Positions 1-64,000 of a stretch of 64,000 nt of DNA are shown here, piece by piece. Each line of letters opens with the position of its first letter. The first letter of the stretch is position 1. This stretch comes from Raja brachyura (Eukaryota): contig OY740821.1 of the NCBI GenBank assembly GCA_963514005.1, positions 15,438,001 to 15,502,000 on the forward strand. Reading direction: 5' to 3'. Under the pieces are notes generated by a model. It was not told the DNA's origin, did not search any database, and saw nothing but the letters and a program-made list of their open reading frames with translations. The position numbers and the translations under genes are program-made.

Positions 1-321
1 GTTTTAGTTGTCGATACTGTAATCTGTCCCGTGAATGGGAAAGAATTATTTCCCCACTGCTGGGTGTAAAGTTTCCCAGAGACTGGGTACTCTGTAGCAA
101 CTCCCTCCTTTGAAGTGCCGTCTGAGAAAAATGTATACCCAAAAAGGAATAGCATCTTTAAATATTTAAAACAAGCACTGGAAACAGTATTTTTGTCACT
201 TTTTGGGAAGATTTTGATTAACTCTGAATCTAACTAAATGTCACTTTCAACCAAAGACTAATTCCTAGATTTAATGCTTTTCCTTTTCTGTAACTGACCC
301 CGTGAAATAACTCTACCATCA

Positions 322-517
322 GATAGACACAAAAAGCTGGAGTAACTCAGCGGGTCAGACAGCATCTCTGGAGAAAAGGAATAGGTGACGTTTCAGGTCG
401 AGACCCTTCTTCAGACCCTATTCTTTTCCTCCAGAGATGCTGCCTGACTTGCTGAGTTACTCCAGCATTTTGTGTCTATCTTCGGATAAACCAGCATCTG
501 CCGTTCCTTCCTACACA
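322..517. mobile_element. Penelope-terminus fold-back element
   Basis: Inverted arms gatagacac..gctggagtaactcagc..gcagcatctctggag around a hammerhead. Confidence 0.7.
383..418 (-). ncRNA. Minimal hammerhead ribozyme (Penelope-type) inside a fold-back repeat
   Basis: Minus strand reads GGGT-CTGAAGAAGGGTCTCGACCTGAAACGTC-ACCT. Confidence 0.6.
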
Positions 518-3017: not shown

Positions 3018-3143
3018 ATGATTAAGAAATCATCATACTTGGACAATGCGGTCGGGGTGGGTGACCTGGTGCTATTGGAGCCTCTCACCGATGAGTCTCT
3101 ACTTTCAAATCTCAAGGAACGATTCAGCAAAAGTGAGATCTAC
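3018..3143 (+). CDS. myo1a: myosin I coding exon 1 (ATG at 3018)
   Basis: [27 protein letters not shown]; acceptor tttctcag at 3008 implies an upstream UTR exon; donor gtaagt. Confidence 0.93.
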
Positions 3144-40000: not shown

Positions 40001-43000
40001 GGGATCTTGAGCAAAATACAGAGGAATAGGAGGAGCAACTCAGCGGGTCAGGCACCATCTACGGAGCAAATGGACCCTTCTTCAGACTGATTGGAGTTGG
40101 GGGGAGAAAGTTGGAATAGGGAGCTGGGGCAGGACAAAGTCTGGCAAGTGATAGGTGGATAAAGGTGAGGGCGGTTTGATAGGCAGATGGGCAGATAAAT
40201 GACAACGGGTAGAGGTGAAACCGAGACAAAAAGGAGTCAGATAAGGAGAGGAGTGAAATGTAAAGCTGGAGGGAGGGCTTCAGGTGGAAGTGGACAGGGA
40301 GGATAAAACTCAGGGATGGGAGATGAGTGGACGGAGGAGGGGGAAGAGCAGGGTGATTGGGAGGGGTAGGTGAGATTGAGAGGCAGTGGCAGCATGGCAA
40401 AGAGAGAGGGGGAAGGGGAGCGAGCAAATTCATTCCAGCTAACCATAGTCAAAGCAAAACAACGTACCATCAGATGCTCTGAACTCCACAAACAATGTCT
40501 CCAGCTCCATTTCCTGCTCCTCTCTCCAGAGCACGATCTTAGTTCCCTTCCTGAAAAACAACAACAGAAACAAAAACAGTAACTAGACATCACCCACAAG
40601 TTGGTTATAAATGCTTTTCCCATTATAAGCCCTAAATAGACAGACTGAAGAAACTGCTCATGGTCACAGGGGTGATAAAGTGGAGCCGCAGCATCCCTGG
40701 CCATTCACATTGCACAGTTGCAGACCCGGAGTAAATGTACTGTAACATTGCCCATGAGGATGTGATCAAGAGGTTGACGCTGCAACTTGCTGCCATTTGA
40801 CAAATCATCCAGTCTTGTCCCACATATTCCACGCCAGGAAAGGATGCAGCACCAGCAATGACGGGTGTAAACCTTCACTTCACTTCTTCATGATGCTCCA
40901 ACTAGCAAATAAACTACAAAGCCTCATACTAAAGGAAACTGAAGCAACCAAAACTCATCCCTTGACCAAATGACACCAGGTTTGCAGCTTCCATGTTACA
41001 CAAGTACTTACTTGACACGTTTGAGGTCTTTTATACTGTCCACCAGGTTCAGCTGTACAAGTTTCACAGCAATCTGCTTTCTGGTCCTTGTCTCATTTTT
41101 AATGTGTTCCATGATGTTGTCAATGACATCTTTACCTGGGAACGGGAAGAGTGCAATGCAATACACCACCAGACCTGCTTTCCCAACTTACACCAGCATC
41201 CCTCTGAAGCATCGAGAACTTGGCATTGTAAATCCCACATGAGAACATACAACAGGACAGCACAGAAGCTGGCCCTTCGGCCCACAATGTCTGTGCCGAA
41301 CATGATGCCAAGACCAACACTTATCTGCCTGCACGTGATCCATATCCCATCATTCCCTGCATATCCACGCGCCTATCCAAAAGTCCCTTAAACGCCACGA
41401 TCGTATCTTCCTCCACCACCCACCCCCCCGGCCGTACATTCCAGCCACCCACCACCCTCTGTGTAAAAATACCTGCCCCGCACATCGCCTTCAAACTTTG
41501 CCCTTCTCACCGTAAAAAGTTACTTGGAGGGGAAACATTTACAGGGAAATGGTGAAAGAGCAGGGATTGGAAATAGTTGGATTGCTATCAAAGAACTACA
41601 CAGGCAGAATGGGCCAAAATATCTCCCTTCACACACCAAGATTTCATGGCTGCAATTTGAAAGGGAGCATCAAGCTCCTCTTAGGAAGGAGATGAGAGTG
41701 GAGGGGGGGGGGGGGGGGTTGGAGAGGGGAAAGGGGCGGAGAGGGGGAGGGGGAGGGGGCGGAGAGGGGGAGGGGGCGGAGAGGGGGGAGGGGGCGGAGA
41801 GGGGGAGGGGGCGGAGAGGGGGAGGGGGCGGAGAGGGGGGGGGGGCGGAGAGGGGGGAGGGGGCGGAGAGGGGGGGAGGGGGCGGAGAGGGGGGAGGGGG
41901 CGGAGAGGGGGGAGGGGGCGGAGAGGGGGGAGGGGGCGGAGAGGGGGGAGGGGGCGGAGAGGGGGGAGGGGGCGGAGAGGGGGAAGGGGGCGGAGAGGGG
42001 GGAGGGGGCGGAGAGGGGGGAGGGGGCGGAGGGGGGGAGGGGGGGAGGGGGCGGAGAGGGGGAGGGGGCGGAGAGGGGGGAGGGGGCGGAGAGGGGGGAG
42101 GGGGCGGAGAGGGGGAGGGGGCGGAGAGGGGGAGGGGGCGGAGAGGGGGGAGGGGGCGGAGAGGGGGGGAGGGGGCGGAGAGGGGGGAGGGGGCGGAGAG
42201 GGGGAAGGGGGCGGAGAGGGGGAAGGGGGCGGAGAGGGGGAGGGGGCGGAGAGGGGGGAGGGGGCGGAGAGGGGGGAGGGGGGCGGAGAGGGGGGAGGGG
42301 CGGAGAGGGGGGAGGGGGCGGAGGGGGCGGAGAGGGGGGAGGGGGCGGAGAGGGGGGAGGGGGCGGAGAGGGGGAAGGGGGCGGAGAGGGGGGAGGGGGC
42401 GGAGAGGGGGGAGGGGGCGAGGGGGCGGAGAGGGGGAGGGGGCGGAGAGGGGGGAGGGGGCGGAGAGGGGGGAGGGGGCGGAGAGGGGGAAGGGGGGGAG
42501 GGGGCGGAGAGGGGGAGGGGGCGGAGAGGGGGGAGGGGGCGGAGAGGGGGAGGGGGCGGAGAGGGGGAGGGGGCGGAGAGGGGGGAGGGGGCGGAGAGGG
42601 GGGAGGGGGCGGAGAGGGGGGAGGGGGCGGAGAGGGGGAAGGGGGCGGAGAGGGGGGAAGGGGGCGGAGAGGGGGGAGGGGGCAGAGAGGGGGGAGGGGG
42701 CGGAGAGGGGGGAGGGGGCGGAGAGGGGGGAGGGGGCGGAGAGGGGGAAGAGAAGTGAACAGTACATTTGATTTAGGACATATTCAGAAATAACCCCAAA
42801 CAGAACACAAACCTCCGTCTTCCTCTTTGAACTGTAGGTACAATGTTTCAAGCTCCTGCTCTTCCTCTGGTGACCAACTTGGAATCCTATGATTCGGCCC
42901 ACTGCAAAAAACCCCATGAAACATTCATGACCACATACGCAAGGGACTGCTATTGTGACACCATCATCTTCCACGCTATTAGCAGAAGCTTTGCACCACT

Positions 43001-46000
43001 GGGTTGGTCAGTATGCACAAACCTGAAGCAGTGATAGTAAACAAGTAAACATTCCTTGAATGATAGATCGGGGAACTGGGGCAGAGAAGGAGATGAGATG
43101 GATCAGCCGCAATCATATTGAATAGTGGGGCAGGCTTGAGTGGACTGCTGCTGCTCCTATAGTCTTGTGTTCAAACAAGTCACATTTCAGGTCCACACAG
43201 GCTATGACAGGGTTCAGACATCCATCTAAGGATCATTATTACTATCAAAGCAGCAACAACACGCAGCATCAATGTCTTCAGAATGATTGTTTTAAAGTCC
43301 CACAATCTCCCAAGCTTCTTGTTCAAAGCACTTGCCTGTCCTCGTCTGTCCTGTAACCCTCCGTCATTTCTCGAATGTTTGCAATATTTTTCCAGAACAG
43401 CAACTCCACAAAGGCCTTGCTGTTGCTGGCAGCTAAAGTGAAGAAACGGCTTAAGACATATCTGGAGAACTTCACCAGCTCCTGTTGTGAAAACAGAACA
43501 GAGATTCAAATACTAAGCAAGCATCGAGCTGCTGCAATTGATGGAAGAACAGAATGTGCTGCAAGGCCATGATTGGGCGGCACAGTGGCACAGCTGTTAC
43601 AGCGCCAGAGACCCAGGTTCCATCCTGGCCTCGGGTGCTGTCTGTGTGGAGTTTGCACATTCTCGCTGTGACCGTGTGAGTTTCCTCATTGTGCTCCGGT
43701 TTCCTCCCACATCCCACAGACGTGCAGGTTTGTAGGTTAATTGCCTCCCTAGTGCGTAGGGAGTGGATGAGAAAGTGGGATAACATAGAACTAGTGAACG
43801 AGTGGTTGATGGTTGGTGCGGACTCGTGGGCCGAAGGGCCTGTTTCTGCGCTGTATCTCTAAACTATAATTCTGGATGAAGCTGGCAGTAATGAGAGCGG
43901 AGGCCAAGAGTCAGGTCTAAAGATGACTGGGAATTGCAGGTCTGTGGATGCCAGGTAAGTGGAGGAGCAGGCTTTGGTGGGACCTCCCTGACATGAGAAT
44001 TTAGTCAAGTGAAGAAAGGTGATGGTGGAGGCAGAAAGTGAGAATGGCACCGTTGTTCCACGTAGCTTCTCAGTGCAAGAGCCACTAAATGACAAAGCAT
44101 GCGAGACTGATGCAAGAGAAATATCATCAGCTTGGGATGATTAACAACCAAGACAAATTGATACATTTATTTCATTTCAATAAACCAGTACAGTACAGAG
44201 CACACAGAACCACAACTGAATGCCCGGAAAACAATTTCAAATGTGTTGTGAAGGACTCCCCTGACATCGAATACAAAGTTTATTTGTCTGGCAACAGACT
44301 CTCATACAAACTTACAACACTTGGTCTGTCGCTTTCCATGCCTTAGTAATTCGAGAACTCTCCTCGATAATTCTGAAATATTGATTCTCTGCCTCCACCA
44401 CCCCCTCAGGCGGTGCGTCGCAGATTCCAACCACCCTTTGGAGGGGGTCACCAAACCCTCAATTCTGTCCCAGTGTACGAGCTCATTCAAGAGCTCTTCC
44501 AAGTTTTAAAAAAATCTAACTCGTGGTAAGAACGTAGAATGTACGTAGTGGATACATCGGAGCTCGGGGACGTCTCTTAGCGGCTCGTAACGCTAATGGG
44601 AAACGCGGTAAGACTCATGAAGATTTTTCAACATGTTGAAAAATGTCCACAAGAGCCCCGAATACCTACGAGCGGCCATTACCTTAATTCTCCGAGTTCG
44701 AATCAGGGGAAACTCGGGAGAATTCTTGAATTAGCTTGTACAGTGGGACAAACCATAACTCTCCTACCTCTCACCTTAAACCTATGCCTTCTGATTATGG
44801 CCACATTGCTGAAGGGAAAGGTGTCCTACCATCCACACTATCTATGCCCCTCATATTTTTGTACACCTGTATCAGGATGCCACCAGCCTTCTCTGCACCC
44901 TCCCTAGTGAATCACATCTCTCCCAAGGTGTTGTGGCCAGACGTGTATACAGTGTGGCCCAGCCAACCTTTTATACAGCTCCACCCTGCTCCATGTTCTA
45001 TGTAGCAGCTAGCTAGCTAGCTAAGCCACTTTATCTACCTGTGCTGCTGCCTTCAGCGATCCATGGACACCTACCCCAAGCTCCGGAATATTTCCTCAGG
45101 CCCCCTCTGCTGTGTGTGTCCTAGCTTTATTAAACCCATCAAAGATGAATCTTCACAATTTTCAGGATTAAATTCCATCTGCCATTTTTCTGCCCATCTT
45201 ACCAATATCCATCTACTGTTTCTCAACAACAGTAGCAAACATTGTGTCACCTGCAAAGTTACCTGTTCCATGACCATGTTGCAACCTACCTGGTATGCAC
45301 CAGTAGCCGGGTCCTCCAGAATGTGACTGAATACGTGGAATACCGAAAGTTGATAAAGAAGGGTGTCCATTTTCAAGTCATATGCTACACGATAGAGCAT
45401 CTTCACAATGCAATGGTTGGTATGAGCATCGTTCTGCCGGTAGTCCTTTAGCAGGAGAACATAGGGCTTCACAACGCCCGCATTAGCAAACCTAAACCAA
45501 ACAGATGGAAGGATGGCGAGGAAAAGAAAAGTGAGTGAACTGGATGCAGGTTTACTATTCTTCTCAAAATTAAGCTAGCTGTAGTGAATACTCGCACTTT
45601 GGGCAGCATCTTTAGTGAGTTAATATTTCACGTTGATAACCTTTCATTAGAACTAGCCATCGACCTAAAACATCAACTCTGCTTCCCCGCCACAGATACT
45701 GCCATTCCCTGCTCAGTAGTTTTCTCATCTTCTTTTATTTCCAGTATTTATGGTGCTTTGTTTTTGAAGACTGTCCTTAAAGGTCGCCTGTGATTCCGAG
45801 CCAACTTGTCGATAGGTTTTGCGCTGTGGGTCACATCAGTCAGAAAAGTGCATTGGGACTGACAAAGCTTTAACTCTAGTTTAGAGATACAGCATGGAAA
45901 CAGGCCCTTTGGCCCATCGAGTCCATGCTGATCACACTAATTCTATGTTATTCCACTTTCTCATCCCTACACACCAGGGTGCAATTTACTGAGGGCCAAT

Positions 46001-49000
46001 TAACCTGCAAAAACCTGCACATTTTTGGGATGTGATAGGAAACCAGAGCACCCGGAGAAAACCCACACGGTCACAGGGAGAACGTGCAAACTCCACACTG
46101 ACGGTCAGGATGGAACCCAGGTCTTTGGCGCTGTGAGGCAGCGACTCTACCAGCACACAAACAGCTAATAGGTAGAGGCCTTTACTTCAAACAGTCCAAC
46201 CCAATTCACATCAGTGCCCCAAAAGTGAAGGTGTCCTCACCCTGGAACACTGCCACCTTATTATTATTTTTAATTTGCTGTACATTGACCATTGCAAATG
46301 CGTTAGGTAATTGTGCAAAAGCGACGTAAATAATCTTTACTTGGAAAACAATCATTCTTAAAACGTTTTACCTTTTCAGATAATCAAAAAGATTAAATTC
46401 GCTTTCTGTCACTCTCACAGATTCTGTTTCTTCCTCTTCTATTTCTTCATCTCCAAATTCTTCTGTCTCTTCGACTTCAACAGCCGGTTGCCCTGTGGAA
46501 TGAACCAGAGCGTTGGATTCAAATACAGCTCCAAGACAATGTTGAAAAGAGTGAAACGATGGCAGCTAAAACACTTACTTGGTAAATTTGCAAACAGTAT
46601 TTGTTTGAGCAATTCGGACTCATCTGTAAGCAATATGTTGGAAGACCCAAACACATCGTCTTCAGGCCACACTTCCCTGAGGAAATAAGCACGAGATGAA
46701 CAATCAATGTACAGTGCCTTTAAGGATCTCACCAGACATCTGAGACCCAAATCAGACGGGCAAATTAGTGAAAAATATGGGCAATTTGAATTGGGAATAA
46801 GATTGCTCAAACTCATTTTACACACATGCCACATACAGCCATCTGCCTAGAGTCCAAACAAAATCTCGTACAAGAAAGAAAGAAATAAGCCCTGCTGTAG
46901 TAACATCATCCACGCACCACCAACGCCTTTCTCTTAATGTTGTTCATATTCATATTTTAATCTAACTCTCACATACAAAGGATTTGCTCGGCACTGCAAT
47001 TAGTGCCATAATGTGGTATTCATCATATTAGACAACTTCTTTAGTCCTTAACTCTCCAACGTCTGCAATTCTCTTCCACATCTCCAGTTTAAACTCACTC
47101 CACCACTGACGGCTGTGCCTTCAGCATCTTACACTAGGCTGAGCAATTCTTTCTCCAAACCTCCTTTAAGACTTTCTTTAAAACTATCTGACTTTTGCTC
47201 ACTTGCCCCTAAAAGCTCAAGGATTGCCAGCAACAGATGATTTAAGTGCACCAAGGGTGTTATACTAGGAGCAGATCCTGCACCTATTTCCTTGGCTGGG
47301 GCATCGGGTCAGGTGATAAAAATACCCAAATGCCTCATGAGTAATCGTAAGACAAAAGAAACCACATTTGTGAGGTCAACTCAACGTCAAGCACCATTTC
47401 ATAACAAGCCAGAGCTTCAAAGGCCACAAATAGTTACCGTGCGGCTCGGAGAAGCACGAGGGCCTCTGCAGTTTTACTGGCTAGCATAGCATCCTGGATA
47501 CGAATCATCGCTTCAGCCCTCTGCTCCTCCACAGGGATTTCTGAAGCAGCATCAAATGGAACCAGATCCTCCGGTAGAAGCTCTTGACCCTGGAAAGCAA
47601 ACGTCAGCTCAGTAAGTCATGACTCAGACACAGTTGTCGATGTGGGGGGGAGGAGGAGAATAAGTACAGCTTCGGTTGTGGGGACATTTACTCCAATCAT
47701 ACAGGATCCTAACTCCATGGTCAATAACCTTTATTGTCCTTCCCCCCCCCCCCCCCCCTCCCCTGTTTCAGTGCCAGTGCAAAGGCAAATCTGTGCCGAT
47801 GCTTCCGTGCAGAATTAAGGGAGTGGGAGAATGTCGGCTTTCAGATGGGACATGAGTATAAGGAAGAAAAACAATGCCTGCAACATCATTTCCCAGTACA
47901 GATTGAGCCTTTCAGGGCAGAAAGCCAATTTAAAAAATATTTTTTTTAAATTAGAAGCATACATAATAATCACGGTATATAATATAATACATTGCATGTA
48001 AAACTTCTTTATTTTTTATTTTTGGATAGAAAAGAAAGAAAAAAGAGAAACTTGAGGATAGTAGTGATGTGTAGGGCGCAATAATTGACGGTTAGTGATT
48101 GATAATTCGATAAATAGACTGCGTCCTTAGAAGTATTTTTTAAAAAAGCCCAGAAAATAAAAGGGCCTTAAGAAAAGAAAGGAAATAAGAAGAAAATGCA
48201 AAAAAAGATAGACTAAAGAGAAAAGAAAGGGAATGTGCCTAATCCGTAACGTTACACACCCCTCACCTAGTTCTAAAACGGTTACTTTCCAGGGTTATGT
48301 TGCACCATATTACACTTGTAATAAATCAATGAAAGACGACGATATCTTAATGAATTGTTCTGATGTTCCTGCTGGACCAAGTCTCATTTCCTCGGGATGT
48401 AATATTTCCGACATATTTGTAATCCACATTTTAAACGTTGGGATAGGTGCGTTTTTCCAGAATTTAAGTATAAGTTTTTTTTGCCGTTATCAAACCATAG
48501 TTGAGGAAACATCTTTGAAATGACGTTAGCTCAGAACAGGCTTCCATTGCTCCGAAAATCATCCATTCTGTGTTTGGGTCCAGTCTTGTTTTTAATAGTT
48601 TTGAAAAGGCTTGACAAATGTCCTTCCAAAATTATTTCTGAAGTTTTACACAGGAGGCAAATGAAAGTGCTATTGCTGCTTCTTGTGTTAGACACTTATC
48701 ACAGATGGGAGAGACGTTTGGAAAGGTTTTATTTAGTTTAGTTTTCGAGTAATATAATCTACGTACAATTTTAAATTGAATCAGGGTGTGTCTGACATTA
48801 ATCGAACATTTGTGTACATATAACCTTCCCGTCTGTGCTTAGGGATTTCTATAGCCAGTTCTTGTTCCCACTCTTATCTTATACCCTCTGTAGAAGGTAT
48901 ATCTATATTTAAAATAGTATTATAGAAATATGATGTTAAATGTTCCAATTCTGTCCATTCATGCCTTGCTCTAGTGGATCCAACGTCAAGTTTTGATAAT

Positions 49001-52000
49001 CTTGTGAATATTTTTTCAGATAATCTCAGATTTGCAGATATCTAAAATATTGGTTACTTTCCAAATTGTATTTCAGCTGTAATTCTTGAAATGTTAACAT
49101 TTTTCCCATTTCATACATATCTTCCCAAGTCTTAATTCCTAATCGTTCCCAGTGAGTAAACGTTTTGTCAATAGTCGATGGCTTAAACGACGGATTATTA
49201 ACTATCGGTGAAAGAAGCGAAAAGTTTCTGAATTTAAGAGTGGATTTTATTTGTCTCCAGATTCGTATTGAGCCAATTTTAAGAAGCATTAATTTTGGAA
49301 TTATGAGTGGAGAAAGATTGCAACTCTGGACAAATGGAAAGAACTATTCTTCAGCAACACCGATCATTAGGAATACCGGTAACTATCCGAGCTTCCCCTT
49401 CTATCAGGCACGTACCTCTGCACATCTGCCAAGTTGCTCCAATGCCGTTTTCCAGATTTCCTCGAGTTCTTCCTGGGATTTTTCTGATGAGGCAGATGCA
49501 GACTGCTTTGATTTACGTTTCTTCTTTTTCAGTTTCTTTCTCTGTTTCAATAAGTGGGGAAATATTGAAACGCCGGCGGCATGAGACACCAAAGTCAATT
49601 ACTTACAATGCCTTCCCGACCTTGCCCTGATCTATCAAGTTCAAGTTGAAGTTGACATTTATTGTCACATGCACCAATTGGTACAGTGATATTTGAATAT
49701 ATATGAATATAATAAGAACACCATACACAACAGAATTTAACATAAACATCCACCTCCCCCAGTCCCCAGGTCTCTGCACTCCTCCAATTCTGACCTCTCA
49801 GTCATTCTATCACTTTGTTATTGTTCACTATACCTTCAGGACGGCGAGTTCCCTCCCTACCCCTCCCCGCTTCTCTCTCCTCATTCAGCTACAAGACCCT
49901 GTGATCTAGAAGTCCCTCCCTAAACCACCCCCCTCTCTCTCTTCCTTCAGTTGCCCGGACCCTGTGATCTAGAAATCCCTCCCTGTACCTACACACACCT
50001 CTCTCTCCTCTTTTAAGATGCTTGTCAACATCTTCTTCTTTGACCAGCCTTAATAGCTCACAAGCTGGCTGCCATATGCTTGTGCACAACCAGAACCTGA
50101 ATCTTTGGGAAAAGAACAAATACCTAGCTTGCTCGGAAGTCGAGCCTAGATTTGTTTTGTTAAACTGATGGCTGTAATATGGAAGCACAAGGTGTAACTT
50201 GGACACAAACATTACCTGCACAAAGAGGTTTGTTTTTCCTTTGCAGAATTTCTCAATCATCCGGATGAAAAGGTGAGTGGTTTCAACGAGATCTTTCAAA
50301 AATGACTTGGGCTGCTTGCTTGGATCAAACTTCCGGAATAACATCAAGAACAACTCCCGGAACTCCATAACATAGAAGATATTACCTGAAAAGGCAAAAG
50401 TAACAATGTCTAATCACAAGAAGCATGTGATGACAGACATGCACAGATCCCAGTAGCGGCGTCATTAACACTCTTCAAAGGAAGCTCTCACTACAAAGTG
50501 GAAGATGATGATAGATCAATACTGGGACTGAAGGCAGGTGGAGGAGCAGGTCTGCAACAAATGCTCATTTCAAAACCATACAAGGCCAGGGAACAAAAAC
50601 ATGATTGCTTTTTTGCAGGTTTTCAGGTCACTTGCACTTACATTTAGTTTGGTTTCTTGCTTATTTCATGAAAAATCTTACATTTGATAACTCTGGCACT
50701 CTCTCGCAGATTTCCATCTTTGGAGTGGTCTATTTCATTCAGGGTGCTGAGCAGCTCTTGATAAGCTTTCAGGGCTAGATGCATTCTGAAAGAGAAGTCT
50801 TGTTTTAGCTGCTGTACAACATGCCATTGTTTTCTTATTGGTTATTAGACAACATGCAATTACTAGAAGGTGATGATACAGTCAGGAAAAACACATACTG
50901 TCGAGCTAAAATTATAAGCCAATGCTATCCCAGTCAGTACATGGCCTGTCCAGTTCAACTGAGCTAGAGAACCAAGAAGACAATACATTCCATCACAGTG
51001 GTGCAGCGGGTAGAGCTGCTGCCTCACAGCTCCACAGACCTGGGTTCAATCCTGACCTCAGGTGCTGTCTGTACCCAGTTTTTACATTCTCCCTGAGATC
51101 GTGTGGTTTCCTCCCACATCCCAAAGACGTGCGTTGTAGGTTAAATGGCCTCTGTAGATTGCCACCAGTGTATAGGCAATGGATGCGAAAATAGGGTAAG
51201 ATAGAACTAGTGTGAATGGGTGATCAATGCTTGGCGTGGAATCAGTGGGCTGAAGGGCCTGTTTCCATGCTATATCTTTCAATCAGTCCAGTCGATGCTG
51301 AATTAAACAACTTTAGGACAATGTAGACAGAAGACACTGCAGATGCCGGTTTACAAAAAGGACACAAGGTGCTGGAGTAACTCAGTGGGTCAGGCAGCAT
51401 CTCTGAAAAACATGGATAGTTGGCGTTTCAGTCTGAAGAAGGATCCTGATCCTTCGCCTGTCCATGCTGCCTCAAGATGCTGCCTGACCCGCTGAGTTAC
51501 TCCAGCACTTCATGTCAACATCCAGATAATACTCAGAGGTCAGCAAGGCCACAGAACAATCCGAGTTTAAGAGAGAGAATCAGTGAGTGCCCACTTGGTA
51601 CTGCACTAGAGATCAGAAAGCATCTGTTGGACTGCAACTCAGGAACATTTAATGAAAGGGGAATAAAACCAGGGAAGTAAATGAAACACATATGATAAAT
51701 ACATGTCAAGTGGAATCCAAAGAGAGCATAATATATCTGAGCACATCAATCCTCAACCAAGAGCAATAGAAATAATTGGTCAACCCATGACTTCGCCCTG
51801 TGTAATTAGCTTGCCGTACCGTCTTGACCAAGAACTGGCTGCTGCCTTGTCGGTCAGCATCATCTCGTAGTAGTTGGTGACATTTCGCTCCACAAAGTGA
51901 AACACTCGAATGCTGACCGTCTCTGATACCAGCTCAGGGCGGAACCTGTACACCCTGTTGAACTTCATGAAGAAGGGCATGGCCCACAGGTAGTACGTCT

Positions 52001-55000
52001 CGTCGTGCTGCTGTGCTTTCTCACGTATCAGGTTGTCCTAGAAATGAAACGAGCACACATTTATACAGGTCTGAGGTGCAGCATGGAAACAGGCCCTTCG
52101 GCCCAACTTGCCCATGCCAACCAACATGCCCCATCTTTCAATTAGTCCCACCTGCCTGTCACAGAAGTGCCAAGATCTCACTGATAATAATGGGCAGCAC
52201 GGTGGCGCAGCGGTAGAGTCGCTGCTTTACAGTGCCTGCAGACCCGGGTTCGATCCCGACTACGGGCGCTGTCTGTATGCAGTTTGTACCTTCTCCCTGT
52301 GACCTGTGTGGGTTTTCTCTGATATCTTCAGTTTCCTCCCACACTCCAAAGACGTAGAGGTTTGTAGATTAATTGGCTTGGTAAGTTCATCCCTAGTGCG
52401 TGTAGGATAGTGTTCATGTGCGGTGATCGCTGGTCGGCGCGGACTCGGTGGGCCAAAGGGCCTGTTTCCACGCTGTGTCTCCAAACTTAACTAAATAAGG
52501 ACACCCATGTCACACTTTAAATGGATCCAAAAGGGTTTCGACCCAAAATATCACCTATGCATGTTCTTCAGAGATGCTGCCTGACCTGCTAAGTCTCTCC
52601 AGCACTTTGTGTTCCTTTACATCGAGTTAAAGTCAGTTCCTACAAGGAATGCAGCTTTGGGTCACATCACACAAGGTTCTCACGGCATTTTGTTTCATTA
52701 TTTAAAACTGGAATTAAAGCTCATTTGGTTTTCAAACAAATTGAGATACCAGCTGGTCAGGTTTTTGTTGAATTTTTCGCCAACAGGAGTAAAGAGGCGT
52801 CTACCTCACAAACGTACCTTTACCACGTACATCAATCTGTTGTAGCAGTTCTCCAAGAAATCCACACAAAATTCCTTCAGGAACAACCTCACATTGAGAG
52901 CAGAGCGTCGCTGGCTCTCCACCTCTACTGCTGCTTGATTCCTCTTTCTAACTTTGCCGACCCGCTTGCCACAATCGTGGGTGTAATTTTTAAACTGAAA
53001 AAATAATAGAAATAAAAACTAAATTGCTTTAATCGTCGGAATCTTCCGTAAAGACGTCATTTAAGTTGCTGTTGTTAACTAATGGGTTCAGCTGCTAAAT
53101 GCAATGACAGTAAAGAGCACAAATATATTGGTAACATATTTACTCACTTTGTGGACTCCCATGTGACTAACAACATCCCTATCTGCAATTGACTTCAAGC
53201 CTTGTATGAGATATGTCCCTCCAAAACGCGAGTGCCTACAATAAATAAAGCAGGCATTCAACAAAAGAAATAAAACCTGCCACTTTAAAAATAATGCAGA
53301 ATGAAGATGATAGCAAGAAACGAGAAAACAACTCAAATGCCCTCCAGTCACGTGTTGCCCCTACTCTGGGCAAGGACCTCCCCCACCGCGCTGTAACCTG
53401 TCATTTCTCACCTGCTCCCCCTTTCAAAGGTTCTTTTTTTCTTTGCAGCCAGCTCTCTCTGCATTAAGATCTCAAGCTCTCTGGACTCTTTCTCTTTCTC
53501 CTGTTTAGTTTTTATTTGCCCTGTACTGGCAAGTTGTTCGGGGTTCTGTTGGACAAATTTCAAAATGATAAATTAATTCACATTTCTCCCACTCGGTTTG
53601 TTAAAACAGAGCTGTATTTTGTTCAGCGTGTGCATCGTGACTGTTGTGTCAGTAGCCAAGGCAAGATCTGCCCAACTAATAGTGGGTACTGCCTAACTCA
53701 AGGTAGATCGGCATGGTGGTACAACGGTAGAGTTGCTGCCTCACTGCGCCAGAGACCTGGGTTTCATCCTGACCACAGGTACTGTCTGTATGGAGTTTCT
53801 ACGTTCTCCCTGGGACCGCGTGGGTTTTCTGCAGGTGCTCCCACACTCCAAAGATGTACAGGTATGTAGGTTAATTGGCTTTGGTATAAATGTAAATTGT
53901 CCTCAGTATGCAGGATAGTGCCAGTATACAGGGTGAACCTTACGGATAGAGGCAATGAAACCACAGCTCACCCGCAGCCTCCAATTCCCATCACAACACT
54001 GCACGGGGAAGGGGAGGATTAAGGGTGCAACAGCATGGGCCACCAGTTCATTGCAGATTAGTACGACGGAGCTTAACTGTTGCCTATTAGTAAACTCCTC
54101 GCCAATCCTCCCACACCCTCGCCCAGACGTGATCCAGCACAAACCTGATTTCTGAACATGAGGGAGACGATCTCCAGTATGTGCATGGCCCATTGTTGCT
54201 CTTCCTGGGAAGCAGCGAGGAACTTAATCAGATCACCCATCCCACTCATGTGCATGGCCCACAACACCTTATCGTGCACGCTGGCATCATCATCAATGTT
54301 CTGCATGAAAATAACATTGGACATGCTTAAAATTACTGACAAAAATTCAACACACAAAAGAAAACCAAATCAAGGTGGTGTGGTTTCAACAAACGTGTTT
54401 GCCAAGTTGCATGAATGGCTATTCTGGTTAAAACAATAGGTCAGCTCAGCCAACTTTGAGCGAGTTGCTCCCAATATTCGTGATCATCTTTGCATTGACC
54501 ATCCTGGGCATCACGACGCAGTATGTGTGACATCCAGGTTACGGTAGTTTGATCCTAGGACTAGGAACGAGCTGCCGGAGGAGGTGGTTGAGGCAGGGAC
54601 TATCCCAACGTTTAAGAAACAATTAAGACAGGTTAATGGATAGGACAGGTTTAGAGGAGACCAACGCGGGCAGATGGGACATGTTGGTTGGTGTGGGCAA
54701 GTTGGGTCGAAGGGCCTTTTCCACCCTGTATGACTCTATGACATGTTACACAAGGAAAATATCATAACTTCCATTTGTGTTCCTCAGACCTTTTGTTTCT
54801 GCATAATCAGATCTCTGGATTACAAGCATTCACTGCAGGTGGCAGCATAAATCAATTGAGTGTCATTTTAATACCACTGCACCCAGCAGCCTTCAAAAGA
54901 TGAGCACAAGTTAAATATCCTAAATCCTCCATGAAAGTTAAACTGAATACTTTTTCCATTAATGACAATATATACAGTACTAATGGGAGTGAACATGACA

Positions 55001-57731
55001 TTGAAAATCAAAAATAAAGCAAAGAATCTTGAAGCTATACAGGAGAACTATTTTTTTCATAACAAACCTTCTCTTCCTCAGGGTCAGAGGGCACATGTAG
55101 AATGTTCCGGAGCAGTAACAAGATCCTTTCAATCAGTAGGTTATCCTCCTCCTGCCTCTGCTCCCAGTCCTGTGACAGAAACGTCATTAAGTGAACAGTA
55201 AAAAAAAACCTTGCAAGCAAACATAATCCTTGTCCCAGTAACACAACAGCAATGCTCGATCACCGGGCACCAGGTTCAAACCGTTAAAGGAATTTTAAAT
55301 AATTTATTGTTTAAGGCAATTCTTTAAGTTAATGAACTATCATAGCATTTCTCTTTTGAATAAATCTATATTTTCACTTACTAGTTGCAGAAGATCATAG
55401 AGTTTTTCACTGAGAATTCCAAACACCTTTTCATTTGCAAAAGCCTAAAATGGAAAGACAGTTGTTTAGTGACTAATGGATATTAGCTCTGCTTAAAAAG
55501 GCACTTTTTCAAAGTACAGTCTACAAATCATTCCAGTGGACGACATTAATTTAACCAAAAATTATACTTCCTGACATTTTTTTAAACCAGAACAAAAAAA
55601 TGTTGAATTAAATTTCTAATGTTATACACTTGCCCATACTAACTCACCATCCTCTTCCAACCCAGCGCCCACACTGGCTCCCAGTCCATCTGTACTCTCC
55701 TCCCCTCCACCCTTTTAGACTGGGTGATCTAGCCATCTGCCTCATCACTTGTTGTGGTGCTAACTGCGGTCTGAAGATCAGCTTCCTTTATTCACTCGCC
55801 TCTTTGTATCCCTGCAGATATGAATCCACTTGCAGAAAGTGATGCCTGGCGGTAGGGTTGGCAGGAACTTTCCCAAAACACAGAAGTGCCGGCTGTGTTA
55901 GATTTACCAACAACCTAGATGAACAGGAGCAACATATCATGCATCAGACCACATTGCAAATGAAAAACAATGACTACAATTGTAACATATCATGAGAACC
56001 TGCATGCAGCAGCTACAAACAAACAAGGCCGTATAGACAGAAATGCCGCCTTGAAGTTGCATGAACCTTAAATTTTGATGATCTTTAGCTCACTCCATCA
56101 ATCACTGTAAGGCCACTCTGACTGATGGAGGAGGATGAAGAGACACGGAATATTTGCAACCTTATCTCCCTCCCTCTATTCCTAGTTCTCAGCCTTGATA
56201 TTAACACCCTCCTGGCGAGAGTTTATATTACTAGCTTGCCCAGACGATCTTTCACGCCACAGCTTCTACCCTCTTCCACCTGTGCCCAGCCTCTTCATCT
56301 CTCTACATTTCCTTTCATTTTTAAGGAACAATGCAGCCTATTGATTTATCAAATTCTAATTTAGAAATATATGACAAGAATTTAAGAAAATAGAAAATGT
56401 GTTTGGCCACAACAGGTTACTTGCTTATCTACCTAAAGCAAAAATTACTCTTTCAGTGAAATTCAAAAGTACTGTTGTTAACACCTTGAAACTGCAATGA
56501 AATGCTGACACTATATGAACATTGACCATGTTGTTCTTTGTGCCAGCTCCACTCTCAACATGATCTTGGACCATTATCCACTTCAGTCCCCTGTTCCTGC
56601 CATTTCCCATGTCCCTTGATCCCTTCACACCAAGAAACACATCTATATCCTTGTTGAAAATATTTTGGTACTTGGTCTGAAGAAGGGTCCCGACCCAAAA
56701 TGTCACCTATTCACGTTCTCCAGGGATGCTACCTGACCAGCTGGGTTACTCCAGCACTTTGTACCTGTCCCTGTTCTCCAGGGATGCTACCTGACCAGCT
56801 GGGTTACTCCAGCACTTTGTACCTATCCCTATTCTCCATAGATGCTGCCTGACCAGCTGAGTTACTCCAGCACTTTGTACCTGTCCCTGTTCTCCGTGGT
56901 GCTGCCTGACCCGCTGAGTTACTCCAGCACTTTGTACCTGTCCACGTTCTCCACCTTCCCAATTCATCACCATTCAGATAATAATCTGTTTTTCTGTTTA
57001 TATAATTTCTGTGTTATATAATTCCTACCTCCCCTGCTTTATAGGCACTTTACAAAAAATGCTCTATTGACCAAAACCGTTTCTAATTTGGTACAAACCT
57101 AATAACTGCTTCATAAAGCATTTTCTCCTGAGGGTACTGTGCAATAATAGGCAACAAATCTTTCTGCAGAATCTGTGTAGCTCCCAGCTGCTGCCGAATG
57201 TCTCTCGTCTCATCCTCGTGTCTTAGGTACCTGATAAGGTCCTTGATGCTTTCTGCAAAACAAAAATGAATCATTCTCACATTTATTCTCCCAGAGAATA
57301 ATCAAACCCGGGTCTCCGGCGCTGTATTCGCTGTAAGGCAGCAACTCTACTGCTGCGCCACCGTGCTACCCTGTGTTTATAGACATTGTGCTGCTGCTGT
57401 AAGTAAAGGGCCTGTCGCCCATATGGTCGTGAGAGGTCACCTATAGTCGTGAGAGGTCTCCAAAGAGTCGTTGCGTCTTTCTGGTCGCCGCTGAATTTTC
57501 AACATGTTGAACATTTTGGCGACCTATGACGGGCGCCTGTAAAGGTCGCGTAAGTGGGACAGGCCTTTAAGAATTTCATTGTTCTGTTTTGGTACATATG
57601 ACAATAAAACAATTTGGACTCTCTCTTGACTCTTACTCACCTAAACAATCAGGCTCTTTGTGATAGTTGTCTCCTTCCAAGTAGCCCATGGCACTGCATG
57701 TTGCTAACAGTTCACAGTTCATTGTGCTCAT
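33893..57731 (-). CDS. timeless: Protein timeless homolog (replication fork protection complex), 29 coding exons, about 1250 aa
   Basis: N-terminus [78 protein letters not shown]-domain PLLWLQNCL and FWRISA; all exon phases consistent. Confidence 0.96.
34270..34975 (+). mobile_element. Degenerate CR1-like LINE reverse-transcriptase fragment
   Basis: [15 protein letters not shown]; [31 protein letters not shown]. Confidence 0.85.
35009..35088 (-). CDS. timeless: timeless coding exon 28
   Basis: [15 protein letters not shown]; ag/gtaaga. Confidence 0.8.
35148..35565 (+). mobile_element. CR1-like LINE 3' fragment
   Basis: gagctataggg..accagagggcat..tggaacgagctgccagagga. Confidence 0.75.
35940..36030 (-). 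CDS. timeless: timeless coding exon 27 (alternative GC donor would end it at 35955)
   Basis: [24 protein letters not shown]; bridges phase 1 to phase 2; low sequence conservation. Confidence 0.65.
36297..36492 (-). CDS. timeless: timeless coding exon 26
   Basis: [30 protein letters not shown]. Confidence 0.88.
37347..37465 (-). CDS. timeless: timeless coding exon 25 (PAB domain)
   Basis: [36 protein letters not shown]. Confidence 0.95.
37998..38066 (-). CDS. timeless: timeless coding exon 24 (PAB domain)
   Basis: [22 protein letters not shown]. Confidence 0.93.
38454..38707. mobile_element. Penelope-terminus fold-back element with internal duplication
   Basis: Same arms; ggaaataggcaacgtttcgggccgaaaccctttggg twice. 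Confidence 0.75.
38880..39090 (-). CDS. timeless: timeless coding exon 23 (acidic linker)
   Basis: [14 protein letters not shown]; donor chosen to give the phase 1 needed by the next exon. Confidence 0.8.
39567..39709 (-). CDS. timeless: timeless coding exon 22
   Basis: [31 protein letters not shown]. Confidence 0.95.
40468..40550 (-). CDS. timeless: timeless coding exon 21
   Basis: [27 protein letters not shown]. Confidence 0.92.
41012..41135 (-). CDS. timeless: timeless coding exon 20
   Basis: [33 protein letters not shown]. Confidence 0.92.
41700..42750 (+). repeat. G-rich minisatellite, about 17-nt unit GGGGGCGGAGAGGGGGGA
   Basis: About 1 kb of nearly pure G/A with one CpG per unit. 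Confidence 0.95.
42813..42901 (-). CDS. timeless: timeless coding exon 19 (start of DNA-binding domain)
   Basis: [21 protein letters not shown]. Confidence 0.9.
43336..43481 (-). CDS. timeless: timeless coding exon 18 (GC donor)
   Basis: [28 protein letters not shown]; AG|gcaagt. Confidence 0.9.
43574..43866 (+). mobile_element. tRNA-derived HE1/V-SINE-like element
   Basis: gggcggcacagtggc..agagacccaggttc..gtctgtgtggagtttgcac..gggccgaagggcctgtttc. Confidence 0.8.
44466..44750. mobile_element. MITE with about 32-bp terminal inverted repeats
   Basis: tgtcccagtgtacgagctcattcaagagctct ... agaattcttgaattagcttgtacagtgggaca; internal palindrome tttttcaacatgttgaaaaa. Confidence 0.7.
45290..45491 (-). 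CDS. timeless: timeless coding exon 17
   Basis: [28 protein letters not shown]. Confidence 0.95.
45878..46155 (-). mobile_element. HE1/V-SINE-like element
   Basis: Reverse complement of the same consensus. Confidence 0.75.
46372..46492 (-). CDS. timeless: timeless coding exon 16
   Basis: acidic stretch then [12 protein letters not shown]. Confidence 0.92.
46579..46676 (-). CDS. timeless: timeless coding exon 15
   Basis: [21 protein letters not shown]. Confidence 0.93.
47438..47589 (-). CDS. timeless: timeless coding exon 14
   Basis: [30 protein letters not shown]. Confidence 0.95.
47940..49390 (-). mobile_element. L1/Tx1-like LINE 3' fragment (ORF2 C-terminus and 3' UTR)
   Basis: [41 protein letters not shown]; SPICDKC zinc knuckle near 48690. 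Confidence 0.75.
49416..49541 (-). CDS. timeless: timeless coding exon 13 (basic, NLS-like)
   Basis: [29 protein letters not shown]. Confidence 0.85.
50216..50385 (-). CDS. timeless: timeless coding exon 12
   Basis: [27 protein letters not shown]. Confidence 0.95.
50682..50785 (-). CDS. timeless: timeless coding exon 11
   Basis: [17 protein letters not shown]. Confidence 0.95.
50995..51282 (+). mobile_element. HE1/V-SINE-like element
   Basis: Same consensus. Confidence 0.75.
51820..52037 (-). CDS. timeless: timeless coding exon 10
   Basis: [28 protein letters not shown]. Confidence 0.95.
52192..52495 (+). mobile_element. tRNA-derived HE1/V-SINE-like element
   Basis: A box ggtggcgcagcgg, B box gggttcgatccc; LINE-like tail. 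Confidence 0.85.
52818..52994 (-). CDS. timeless: timeless coding exon 9
   Basis: [28 protein letters not shown]. Confidence 0.95.
53148..53235 (-). CDS. timeless: timeless coding exon 8
   Basis: [20 protein letters not shown]. Confidence 0.95.
53412..53545 (-). CDS. timeless: timeless coding exon 7
   Basis: [23 protein letters not shown]. Confidence 0.92.
53711..53940 (+). mobile_element. HE1/V-SINE-like element
   Basis: Same consensus. Confidence 0.7.
54145..54300 (-). CDS. timeless: timeless coding exon 6
   Basis: [26 protein letters not shown]. Confidence 0.95.
55068..55169 (-). CDS. timeless: timeless coding exon 5
   Basis: [27 protein letters not shown]. Confidence 0.95.
55382..55444 (-). 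CDS. timeless: timeless coding exon 4
   Basis: [21 protein letters not shown]. Confidence 0.93.
55800..55914 (-). CDS. timeless: timeless coding exon 3 (GC donor)
   Basis: [21 protein letters not shown]|gcgagt. Confidence 0.9.
56674..56952 (+). repeat. Degenerate hammerhead followed by about 58-nt tandem repeat x4
   Basis: ctgaagaagggtcccgacccaaaatgtc then (gttctccagggatgctacctgaccagctgggttactccagcactttgtacctgtccct) x4. Confidence 0.75.
57099..57252 (-). CDS. timeless: timeless coding exon 2
   Basis: [27 protein letters not shown]. Confidence 0.95.
57407..57567. mobile_element. PIF/Harbinger-like MITE with TAA target duplication
   Basis: TAA-agggcctgtc ... gacaggcctt-TAA; internal ttcaacatgttgaa palindrome. 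Confidence 0.7.
57641..57731 (-). CDS. timeless: timeless coding exon 1 (exon extends to 57775 as UTR)
   Basis: [30 protein letters not shown]; donor gtgagt. Confidence 0.92.
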
Positions 57732-59880: not shown

Positions 59881-59889
59881 TCCATTTAA

Positions 59890-60075
59890 TGTTCAAGAAG
59901 GAACTGCAGATGCGGGAAAATCGAAGGTAGACACAAAAGTGCTGGAGAAACTCAGCGGGTGCAGCAGCATCTATGAAGCAAAGGAGATAGGCAAGGTTTC
60001 GGCCCGAAACGTTGCCTATTCCCTTGGCTCCATAGATGCTGCCTCACCCGCTGAGTTTCTCCGGCACTGTTTGTC
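59890..60075. mobile_element. Penelope-terminus fold-back element just upstream of the tRNA
   Basis: Same arms centred on gtttcggcccgaaac. Confidence 0.7.
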
Positions 60076-60146: not shown

Positions 60147-60228
60147 GTCACGGTGGCCGAGTGGTTAAGGCGTTGGACTCGAAATCCAATGGGGATTCCC
60201 CGCACAGGTTCGAATCCTGTTCGTGACG
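60147..60228 (+). tRNA. trnaS-CGA: tRNA-Ser(CGA)
   Basis: 82 nt; acceptor stem GTCACGG/TCGTGAC, A box TGGCCGAGTGG, anticodon arm TTGGA-CTCGAAA-TCCAA, variable arm GGGG-ATT-CCCC, B box GGTTCGAATCC, T-run terminator near 60238. Confidence 0.97.
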
Positions 60229-60280: not shown

Positions 60281-60597
60281 TCATAGAAACATAGACAACA
60301 GGTGCAGGAGTAGAGGCCATTCGGCCCTTCGAGCCTGCACTGCACCACCATTCAATGTGATCACGGCTGATCATCCAACTCAGTATCCTGTACCTGCCTT
60401 CTCTCCATACCCCCTGATCCCTTTAGCCACAAGGGCCACATCTAACTCCCTCTTAAATATAGCCAATGAACTGGCCTCAACTACCCTCTGTGGCAGAGAG
60501 TTCCAGAGACCCACCACTCTCTGTGTGAAAAAAGTCCTTCTCATCTCAGTCCTAAAAGACTTCCCCCTTACCCTTAAGCTGTGACCCCTTGTTCTGG
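60281..60597 (-). mobile_element. CR1/HER1-like LINE 3' fragment
   Basis: Near identical to 4567-4880. Confidence 0.88.
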
Positions 60598-61399
60598 AAG
60601 TTATAAATATAACTTCTCACACCCTTTCACACACTATCCTACACCGGTTTGATGTTCACAGAGTAAAATGTGTACAACATCATCAATAAAACAGATGAAT
60701 ATTATTACAAAGGTTTATTCATAATAGTTCACAATATAACACAACTTTATTCCATGGACAAAAAAAAACTTCAGTTATAAATGCTTCAGTAATTCTTTTC
60801 ACATCTACCTGTTACCTCCTCTACTTTATCCACAAATGCTGACAAACCCAGCTGTGAATCGAGCATTCTTCACTGTACGATACAATAGAACGTTATCCCA
60901 GGAGTTAAATTGATCTGCCCACAGTCATAAAACATGAGAAACATGAAATTAAATTGATGAGGGGAAAGGAGAAGAGAGTCAGTCTACCCCCATGACAGCA
61001 GGAGATATATTATTACAATAATACTCTTTTTATAAAAATAAGAGAAACTGTTGACAACATTCAGGTGTGGAGGGGAAAAACAGAGTCAACATTTTCTCCA
61101 GATCTGGAAAAAAATGACAAAATAACCTGTTTTAAGTGGGGATCGAAAGGGGAATTGACTCAAGTGACACAATTGCTTCTGGTGGCCGGTGAAATGAATG
61201 CGACTTATAGCTAAAGATAGGCACAAAATACTGGAGTAACACAGGACACGCAGTATCTCTGGAGAGACGGATAATGTTTTGCGTCAAGCAAAGATCTTTG
61301 GCGTCAAGATCCTTCTTCAGACTAATGTCAGGGGAGAGGGAGATACATAGATAAGAAGTGTAAGGTGTGAAAATAGGACAAAGAGAATAGAGATCAAGG

Positions 61400-61435
61400 A
61401 GGTCTGAAGAAGGGTCTCGACCCGAAACGTCGCCT
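61400..61435 (+). ncRNA. Minimal type I hammerhead ribozyme (Penelope-type), intact core
   Basis: AGGT-CTGAAGA-A-GGGTCTCGACCC-GAAAC-GTC-GCCT; helix I 4 bp, helix II GGGT/ACCC, palindromic ACGT helix III; predicted cut after C61431. Confidence 0.7.
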
Positions 61436-62086
61436 ATCTCCTTCGCTCCTTAGATGCTGCTGCACCCGCTGAGTTTCTCCAGCTTTTTGTGTAACCCCCA
61501 GAGATCAAGGCGAGTCTGGGTTAAAACGTGGCCCGTTGAGCGGAAGACCAGGAGGAATCACAGAGGGGGGGGGCAGCAAGAGAGGCTGGTGCTGAACTCT
61601 CGGCGGAGAGGAGAACTTCTTCAAAGTAGACATACCTTGAGATTTCACAGTGGAGCAGATGATTTTTGTGGAGTGTAAAGAAGAACATGAATAAAAGCAG
61701 AAAAGGAAAAAACTAGCCATTGGAACAGTTGAGATGCAGAATTCAACAACCGCTATAAATTAGGAACAAAGGAGGATATTGGAAATACTCAATGAAATGG
61801 ATGTCATCTGCAGCGAGAGAAACTGGAGTTAATGGAAGGACTTGCATGACAACTGGCCACTCTAACGCAAATAGGAAAGGCCGACTATTTGAAACAGTTT
61901 CATTCAGTTTCAAATCCAGAGGGCTACGATATGTCAAGATGGAAGAAGAGGTGCTGTTGCTTGTGCTTACTTTGGAACAGTGTAGGAGGTTGAAGATAAA
62001 AGTCAGAGCGGACAGTCAACTGGAAACTCACGGCCACTTACAGTCCGAATGGGGATGAGCCACAAAACTGTCAACCAAGCTAGCCC

Positions 62087-62657: not shown

Positions 62658-63187
62658 TAAGCTGCATTTGATTTCTCCAACGTAAAAGACAATCACATTA
62701 TACACGCCAAACAATATACACCAAAATGGAAGAACTGCAAGTGAATCCCCGCGTCATCTGGGAGAACTATTTTGGACCCTAGCTGTTGCAAAGGGAATTG
62801 TATAGGGGAAAAATGCAGTGAAATGGGGAATGGTTGTGGACATGGGAAAAAATTGAACCAGGATGTCATATCCTTCAAAGTCTGAAAGGCAAGGAAAGAT
62901 AGTTCTGGTGGTGGAACCTTGTTAAATGACTGAGGGCAATTCATTAAACATAGAGGCCGGTGAGATTGAAGGCAAAAGTAACCTCATCACTTCTCTGGTT
63001 GAGATGATATAGTATAATAAGATCCATATAGTTAAGATAGTCCAAGCCTTGGTTAAGGGAAAGGAAATCTGAGAGCACTGGTATGGAAAGTCTCGTCAAA
63101 GCAGATTCAGAGACACTCAGTAAATGGAATGAGATTCTTGCAGGGAGAAAGATGGAAGAAGGTGGTTAAGATAGCTGTCGGACCTTA

Positions 63188-63382
63188 TGTTTAAGAAAGA
63201 CCCACAGATGCTGGAAAAATTGAAGGTAGACAAAAAATGCTGGAGAAACTCAGTGGGTGAGGCGGCATCTATGGAGCTAAGGAAATAGGCAACGTTTCGG
63301 GTCGAGACACTTGCAGGGTCTCGACCCGAAACGTCGCCTATTCCTTCGCTCCATAGATGCCGCCTCACCCGCCGAGTTCCTC
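63188..63382. mobile_element. Penelope-terminus fold-back element
   Basis: gtttcgggtcgagac..gggtctcgacccgaaacgtc inverted halves. Confidence 0.7.
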
Positions 63383-64000
63383 CTGTAGGACTTTATGGTC
63401 ATTTACCTACTCCGAGATGAAGATGGGGAAGATTCAGATGTGGACCATGTTAAAGTGAGAGCATTAAACGTGGTGAACTTTTCATCTGTGCAGTTGTAAT
63501 AAATGGTGCCAATACAGTTATCAAGAGGCTGAAGTAGAACTGAAGCAGGGACTGTACAGGAAGGAGTTGCAGATGCTGGTTTAAACCACAGATAGACACA
63601 AAAAGCAGAGACTGTTCCACATAACTTACAGCTGTAGCTTGGGAAAGTTCACAGTTATACCTTGGATATGGACCAAGCCAGTTAAAAACATTATTCAATG
63701 CCAGTACAAGCTCGGTATTTTCTGTTCTTATTTCAGATTTCTTTTTTTTTTGCATTTCAGTTGTCTCCATTGTTGCAAAACCTTTATTTCAAGTACATTT
63801 CATAAATTATCAGGAGAGTTTGGACTCTAACATTGAGTTCTATCTTTTGAATAATATTTTAACATTGCAAAATGTGATTTGAACTCAATTGTATCATTTT
63901 AGTTTAGTTCCAGCGTAAACGCCGACTCTTTGCTTGTTGCACGACAAGTTGTGTTTGCAGCCACACACCAAAGCAAATTCTCTGGGGCGAATAGTTCTTG

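Follow-up and report, generated by a model that had tools for sequence, protein, structure and literature searches.

Minimal type I hammerhead ribozymes (min-HHRs) are an established feature of Penelope-like elements (PLEs), and both the class and the dimer logic of its activity have been published (PMC4209133; PMC6765202). Helix I of PLE min-HHRs is reported as 4-5 bp, or 2 bp in a D. virilis variant, and in vitro the monomers are inactive and the dimers weak (PMC4209133). The hammerhead of PAc, a Poseidon element of Anolis carolinensis, cut only with protein, was dispensable for insertion in vitro and gave no RNA-seq ends at the cut (Frangieh et al. 2024, PMC11167929). One of nine Xenopus dimers cleaved, according to a recent preprint that also reports non-LTR retrozymes in one chondrichthyan (Li et al. 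2026, bioRxiv 10.64898/2026.07.22.740005). Roles considered for PLE hammerheads are circularisation, processing, or none.

We analysed a 64,000-nt stretch of Raja brachyura DNA (the window) in which a first-pass annotation had described a dispersed hammerhead motif. The motif proved to be a minimal type I hammerhead located in the pseudo-LTR (pLTR) of a PLE with reverse transcriptase (RT) and GIY-YIG domains. Since the class is known, the motif alone is ordinary; interest attaches to the ends of its copies and to the intact cores in introns. We assign a probability of roughly 70% to the overall reading that this is a PLE hammerhead whose scattered copies mostly begin at its first bases, were likely made from uncut RNA, and decay neutrally.

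The element and its copies

The motif combines CUGANGA, GAAA and UH with an extra base after A9, G10.1-C11.1 and a palindromic helix III without a loop; the first-pass annotation had correctly described the minimal type I motif, the extra base and the loop-less helix III. The exact 28-nt core is present at 61404-61431 (+) and 21928-21955 (-), where it had been placed, and a near-intact core at 387-414 (-) differs at a single position, C11.1 to T, which gives a G-U pair. Point-mutated copies were likewise recovered at 10058, 18638, 19132 and 56677, as were the fragments reported with them (15336, 61293 and 63291-63335, and near 25813, 40000-40093 and 51429). Analysis of the window with nhmmer gave 47 repeat pieces at E<=10, of which 32 lie at E<1e-3.

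Across the 2.70-Gb genome the exact core has 52,217 matches (26,165 + 26,052), against 0 + 0 for the reversed pattern, so its recurrence is not due to chance. Sixty arbitrarily placed 10-kb stretches (600 kb in total) contained 218 repeat pieces at E<1e-3, 17 exact cores and 30 descriptor-intact cores, with no pieces and no descriptor hits in the reversed control. The earlier estimate of one copy per 5 kb holds for degenerate pieces only (218 per 600 kb, or one per 2.75 kb); the mean spacing is about 20 kb for descriptor-intact cores and 52 kb for exact ones. By extrapolation the genome would hold ~0.98 million pieces, which make up 4.1% of the sampled DNA, and ~135,000 descriptor-intact cores (91,000-193,000). 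These totals may be high, because the 17 sampled exact cores extrapolate to 76,500 (interval 44,600-122,500) against the true count of 52,217.

A search of the Rfam hammerhead families, as the annotation had suggested, gave no family match even at E<=10 over 61150-61650; none reached the gathering threshold in the whole window, where the sole Rfam match is a tRNA. A broader descriptor applied to 885.9 kb found no hammerhead family outside this Penelope-like one. The tRNA gene at 60147-60228 (+) (Rfam tRNA, 62.5 bits; anticodon CGA, Ser) lies ~3 kb 5' of the first matched exon of TIMELESS.

The link between the motif and an ORF was traced by searching with the Cys-rich linker-coding piece of the window copy at 21827-22042. 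In a protein search, 150 of 40,483 candidates were scored and yielded at least 153 matches. Cores, where present, are found on the strand of a GIY-YIG ORF, ~100-250 nt behind its stop; of 15 ORF loci retrieved, this applies to the 12 in which a frame reaches that stop or region. Two loci are pLTR-ORF-pLTR units of ~4.0 kb: L052, with an 828-nt repeat 99.0% identical and cores 3,984 nt apart, and L056, with a 230-nt repeat 99.1% identical and cores 4,039 nt apart. The ORF link and these units bear out the membership in a PLE that had been proposed from the motif. At L055 (2888-8040), two long young copies lie head to head and are 99.6% identical over 1,262 nt.

The open ORF of L049 (1,191 aa) carries DKG at 597, YIDD at 838 and a YIGET region at 1096-1112, together with a C-x4-C-x2-C linker (CNRKRCYTC at 1058) and the CxxC and two His of a CCHH GIY-YIG domain. 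Its matches to Pfam RVT_1 and GIY-YIG are weak and below cut-off; its close homologues carry RVT_1, and some also GIY-YIG. The best homologues are ~50% identical, and the few that are named belong to molluscs and cnidarians. As in EN+ PLEs, a single ORF joins RT to a C-terminal GIY-YIG domain, partial tandems serve as pLTRs, and inverted 5'-truncated copies occur with an optional tail of 30-40 nt. A CX2-5CxxC Zn-finger-like linker between RT and EN together with the CCHH motif defines Neptune/Nematis (PMC8557442), and the L049 ORF has this linker. Since only Neptune and Poseidon are reported from vertebrates (Li et al. 2026, bioRxiv 10.64898/2026.07.22.740005), the element most likely belongs to the Neptune clade, an assignment made by linker motif and not by tree.

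The copies and genes of the window are collected in Table 1. The element sequence of the stub at 61400-61499 is identical at 96 of 96 positions to the 3' pLTR of L052, and the stub finishes at the short 3' terminus, +66 relative to a cut predicted after 61431. Its insertion site lies within a minus-strand remnant left by an older copy of this element. The AGGU/GCCU pairing that the first-pass annotation took for helix I at this copy is possible, but its outer two pairs come from junction filler (61400-61401); the 4-bp helix is an accident of the junction, and native helix I is 2 bp.

Table 1. Coordinates of element copies, their parts and the neighbouring genes in the window.
Feature	Position	Strand	Details
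5'-truncated pLTR stub, young family	61400..61499	+	100-nt insertion; 61402-61497 is element sequence
Left target-site duplication (TSD), 11 nt	61389..61399	+	identical to 61500-61510
Right TSD, 11 nt	61500..61510	+	identical to 61389-61399
Minimal type I hammerhead core	61404..61431	+	CUGANGA, extra A, GAAA, loop-less ACGU, C17
Helix II	61412-15/61420-23	+	4-nt loop
Helix I 5' strand (4 bp)	61400..61403	+	partner 61432-61435; inner 2 pairs alone element-encoded
Older degenerate pLTR, broken hammerhead	61221..61324	-	part of remnant hosting the 61400-61499 stub
Leader/ORF-start piece of the same remnant	61550..61659	-	79% identical, blastn to L052
Internally deleted young copy	21827..22042	-	intact core 21928-21955, long tail; Zn-linker ORF piece 21986-22045 joined to 3' UTR
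TSD of 21827..22042 copy, 13 nt	21814-21826 and 22043-22055		
Head-to-head inverted pair, single insertion unit	323..516	.	near-intact core 387-414 (-)
TSD of 323..516 pair, 14 nt	309-322 and 517-530		
Older 5'-truncated copy	9744..10190	+	endonuclease-coding piece 9744-9910
Core of 9744..10190 copy	10058-10085	+	G16.2 changed to A
Head-to-head pair, cores broken	18515..18711	.	G12 changed to A at 18638
Head-to-head pair with three extra 34-nt tandem pieces	23341..23632	.	truncated inside core
Head-to-head pair	31512..31717	.	truncated inside core
Older copy, broken core	56675..56936	+	followed by ~58-nt tandem pieces
Head-to-head pair	59889..60073	.	truncated inside core
Head-to-head pair	63183..63386	.	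without CUGANGA
Myosin-Ib-like gene, coding span	3018..32979	+	27 tblastn segments of P0122, in order
TIMELESS gene, matched-exon span	37326..57253	-	

The intact core at 21928-21955 is antisense inside an intron of the myosin gene, an exon of which is 92% identical to a Leucoraja protein. The copy at 61404 is on the strand opposite to TIMELESS, 4.1 kb away on the 5' side of that gene's first matched exon. No intact core among the three in the window is sense to a mappable gene, and at 10058, 18638 and 19132 the sense-oriented copies are all broken. At the 21986/21985 junction, the Zn-linker region is fused to the 3' UTR at a short AT-rich word common to both. Other repeats in the window comprise a G-rich tandem array of ~9-nt units within the TIMELESS span (~41623-42800); a family of 300-400 nt with 74-94% identity (4588-5592, 19178-19634, 60302-60601 and 62112-62506), including an inverted pair 194 nt apart, which probably represents LINE 3' ends; and a dispersed repeat with a B-box-like motif (43582, 46011, 51009, 52240, 53726 and 58415), probably a tRNA-derived SINE.

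Ends of the copies

Most copies are stubs of 95-135 nt that start at the hammerhead's first bases. We examined piece ends, which nhmmer gives approximately to a few nt, in the 600-kb sample and in a second sample of equal size (600 kb), drawn from introns of 11 genes whose strand is known. Relative to the predicted cut, 5' ends fall at -36..-26 in 123/218 pieces of the first sample and 114/301 of the intron sample (237/519 combined), and at the cut itself in 1/218 and 2/301 (3/519 combined). The 5' peak is less sharp in the intron sample because 98/301 pieces there start inside the core (32/218 in the first sample). Among 101 young-family copies chosen for a whole core, for which the native upstream sequence is known, 63 keep 0-7 native upstream bases, another 20 are broken within the 600 nt beyond, and 18 extend past these.

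TSDs of at least 9 nt flank 26 of 44 non-inverted stubs, the other 18 having none, and 21 of the 26 lie within 18 nt of the core. A control gave 7/300, none within 90 nt, so the stub ends are real junctions. The 3' ends form two peaks, at +60..69 (75/218) and +95..109 (79/218), that is, at ~+62-66 and +102. Head-to-head pairs account for 80/218 pieces, and 26 of 40 pairs consist of one long and one short arm, a known signature of the PLE tail, which in PAc corresponds to two sites of internal priming (PMC11167929). Tandem pieces number 8-10 of 218, and those in the window lack a full core. Non-inverted stubs carry short fillers at the 5' junction, several of them G-rich. An excess of an extra G at this junction, as a copied cap might leave, is weak when the young family is taken by itself (5/9, p=0.08; 6/10, p=0.05) and stronger in a mixed set that includes native-upstream copies (12/17 and 14/22, p<0.002).

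These ends suggest the following scheme. Transcription would start within the pLTR at ~-30, so that the RNA would open with the hammerhead as its first 30 nt. Reverse transcription would be primed by the element protein at an internal site, +66 or +102, as in the anole PAc. Priming in the 5' pLTR would run off the RNA 5' end after ~95 or 135 nt and leave stubs (strong-stop copies), and snap-back or a template switch at that end would generate the head-to-head pairs; priming in the 3' pLTR would give long copies, mostly 5'-truncated. Since the stubs carry a complete hammerhead, the RNAs from which they were copied would have been uncut.

The sequence at ~-30 fits an initiator consensus. An internal promoter has been described for Drosophila Penelope (PMC2377424). 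A DPE-like reading of ACGT at +27..+30 was rejected, being offset from the Drosophila motif. Contigs of four sequencing runs, guessed to be RNA but in one case probably DNA, showed loose ends at position 2906 (-31) and, in three runs, a depth step at the pLTR; these fit the genomic 5' boundary and may themselves come from DNA.

The 5' pile-up might instead mark a hot spot at which RT stalls or switches template at the structured hammerhead of a longer RNA, and not an RNA 5' end. Many inverted junctions lie on a near-palindrome at -31..-25, and the pieces that end inside the core (see above) would suit such a hot spot, as would the ability of the young-family tail end (+88..+100) to pair with the core 5' strand at -12.3 kcal/mol (L052:2910-3039). 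We nevertheless consider it unlikely, since the stop lies just past the structured part and the short, partly G-rich fillers on non-inverted stubs are typical of run-off. The core-tail duplex, moreover, barely beats shuffled sequences over 43 copies (-6.4 vs -5.0; better in 28/43), a difference so modest that we also rejected this pairing as a conserved off-switch.

It is less likely again that the stubs are a self-propagating, SINE-like family, each transcribed from an internal promoter and recopied by the element protein. Their fixed ends, TSDs and sheer number, and the presence of several subfamilies, are what such a family would display. All four named subfamilies, however, include members that reach native-like upstream sequence (10/48, 9/52, 4/17 and 2/21), the stub in the window is 100% identical to an ORF-bearing unit, and no stub-only subfamily was seen.

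Hammerhead activity in the copies

The first-pass annotation concluded that the motif forms a very large self-cleaving family that often lies inside pre-mRNAs. Copies might cut host pre-mRNAs by dimerising in cis within one transcript, for example, and several observations are in keeping with this: the estimated number of descriptor-intact cores is large; sense cores can be numerous within one gene (14 in 100 kb and 10 in 110 kb sampled), so that partners for cis dimers exist; subfamily changes leave invariant core positions untouched and preserve pairing through wobbles; and about a tenth of matches gain a helix I of at least 4 bp (9/96).

We measured decay as the share of cells departing from the commonest letter of the column, at non-CpG positions in 161 spanning copies. 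A core no better conserved than its flanks had been named in the annotation as counting against its reading, and this is what the copies show: the core departs at 9.5% and the tail at a median of 9.3% (+21..+55). In a second sample of 173 copies the figures were 8.2% (core) and 6.2% (invariant tail positions). At N7, which is free to vary, departure (12%) does not exceed that at C3, U4 or G5 (12-14%), and G12 decays as a CpG (33%). The cores decay at the neutral rate, as fast as the tail.

The 301 intronic pieces comprise 148 sense and 153 antisense. Intact cores in these introns show no depletion on the sense strand (29 sense, 21 antisense), and strand distribution does not differ between intact and broken cores (Fisher p=1.0); the 50 intact cores lie in 8 of the 11 genes, 41 of them in two genes. 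Tens of intact sense cores lie undepleted in introns of ion-channel genes, which argues that minimal hammerheads are silent outside the element's RNA-protein particle.

Of the 96 matches with any helix I, a set that includes targeted loci, 84 have the native length of 2 bp, and position 2.3-1.3 is A-C in 73/96, which fits only the short-helix I variant. The covariation that the annotation had proposed to look for in the helices is confined to one-sided changes (U-A/U-G at 10.4-11.4 and 2.1-1.1), with no two-sided change at the family level. Differences between subfamilies are restricted to loop 2, H17 and wobble-tolerant pair positions, a pattern that would fit selection on master elements. 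Much older relatives with a divergent hammerhead region lie at 27534-27634 and 34182-34272 and are a possible source of two-sided covariation. In folding calculations, whose results are weak because ViennaRNA cannot model the core, helix II has a probability of 0.00-0.03 in three contexts of the young family, in which another hairpin is preferred; the monomer never reaches the active fold, and cofolding joins the helix II strands between molecules, not helix III.

The neutral decay of the core, the 29 and 21 intact cores on the two strands and the native 2-bp helix I run counter to the annotated family of self-cleaving RNAs, as do the low helix II probabilities and the poor cleavage in vitro of min-HHR monomers and dimers, including those of Xenopus. 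We regard active cutting of host pre-mRNAs as very improbable, and the dispersed copies likely do not cut host RNAs.

Least probable among the readings of the 5' boundary is a 3' splice site, with a pyrimidine tract and CAG at -31..-29 just 5' of helix I and retained letters resembling exon ends, such that stubs would derive from spliced RNAs: there is no shared upstream exon, no GT..AG occurs among 15 of 61 joints, and TSDs lie within 18 nt of the core in 21/26, with an unexplained 34-59 nt in 2 only. The intron of D. virilis Penelope does end at the 5' end of helix I (PMC4209133). Exon trapping was ruled out by the TSD distances.

We return to the preferred reading, in which stubs are strong-stop copies of uncut element RNA. 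Given its 2-bp helix I and a helix III without a loop, the ribozyme would need dimerisation or the assistance of protein to cut, in full-length element RNA, and solitary intronic stubs would be nearly silent. With somewhat less than even confidence, we put forward that the transcript may start at the hammerhead itself, that the ribozyme may act there as a self-decapping switch, and that the near-million strong-stop stubs (~4% of the genome) may record the start site, the priming sites and the uncut state of the templates.

Relation to described systems

The skate motif has the type I core of the min-HHRs of fish Neptune, Poseidon and Xena elements (Cervera & de la Peña 2014, PMC4209133). It also has in common with min-HHRs the extra base between 9 and 10.1, G10.1-C11.1, a loop-less palindromic 15.2-16.2, a position in both pLTRs, and copies that are mostly solitary and truncated or paired on opposite strands (PMC4209133). 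It differs in having a helix II of 4 bp and a helix I of just 2 bp (as in D. virilis). The 52,217 exact cores far exceed the ~4,000 in coelacanth and ~9,000 in Xenopus (PMC4209133), although the descriptors differ and only about a tenth of matches here have a helix I of at least 4 bp. In the text examined and two supplementary files of that study we found no cartilaginous fish.

Non-LTR retrozymes (Li et al. 2026, bioRxiv 10.64898/2026.07.22.740005) are likewise PLE-derived and carry a type I hammerhead. They are described as tandem arrays with a hammerhead in each unit, whereas the skate copies are dispersed stubs or inverted pairs, and tandem units each with a complete hammerhead are not a feature of the skate family. 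A literature search that did not extend to most subscription journals turned up no account of this family from cartilaginous fishes, none of the pile-up of 5' ends, and none linking strong-stop products to a Penelope pLTR. Repbase or Dfam, which lay beyond its reach, may list the family.

The closest parallel in mechanism is PAc (Frangieh et al. 2024, PMC11167929), which also has a hammerhead in the pLTR, two 3' ends split by a 30-40-nt tail, some 60-100 nt behind the cut, and no sign of cut templates in the account given there. Unlike PAc, the skate element belongs to another clade and has a Zn linker, and its ATG lies 136 nt behind the cut site, whereas that of PAc is inside the hammerhead. 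The text examined on PAc does not describe a pile-up of 5' ends at the hammerhead (PMC11167929). The skate genome offers hundreds of thousands of insertion ends, which coincide with the first bases of the hammerhead and hardly ever with the cut site, a pattern that constrains the mechanism of the hammerhead and agrees with the in vitro result for PAc. The young skate family, with its open ORF, makes protein-assisted cleavage testable in a second PLE clade.
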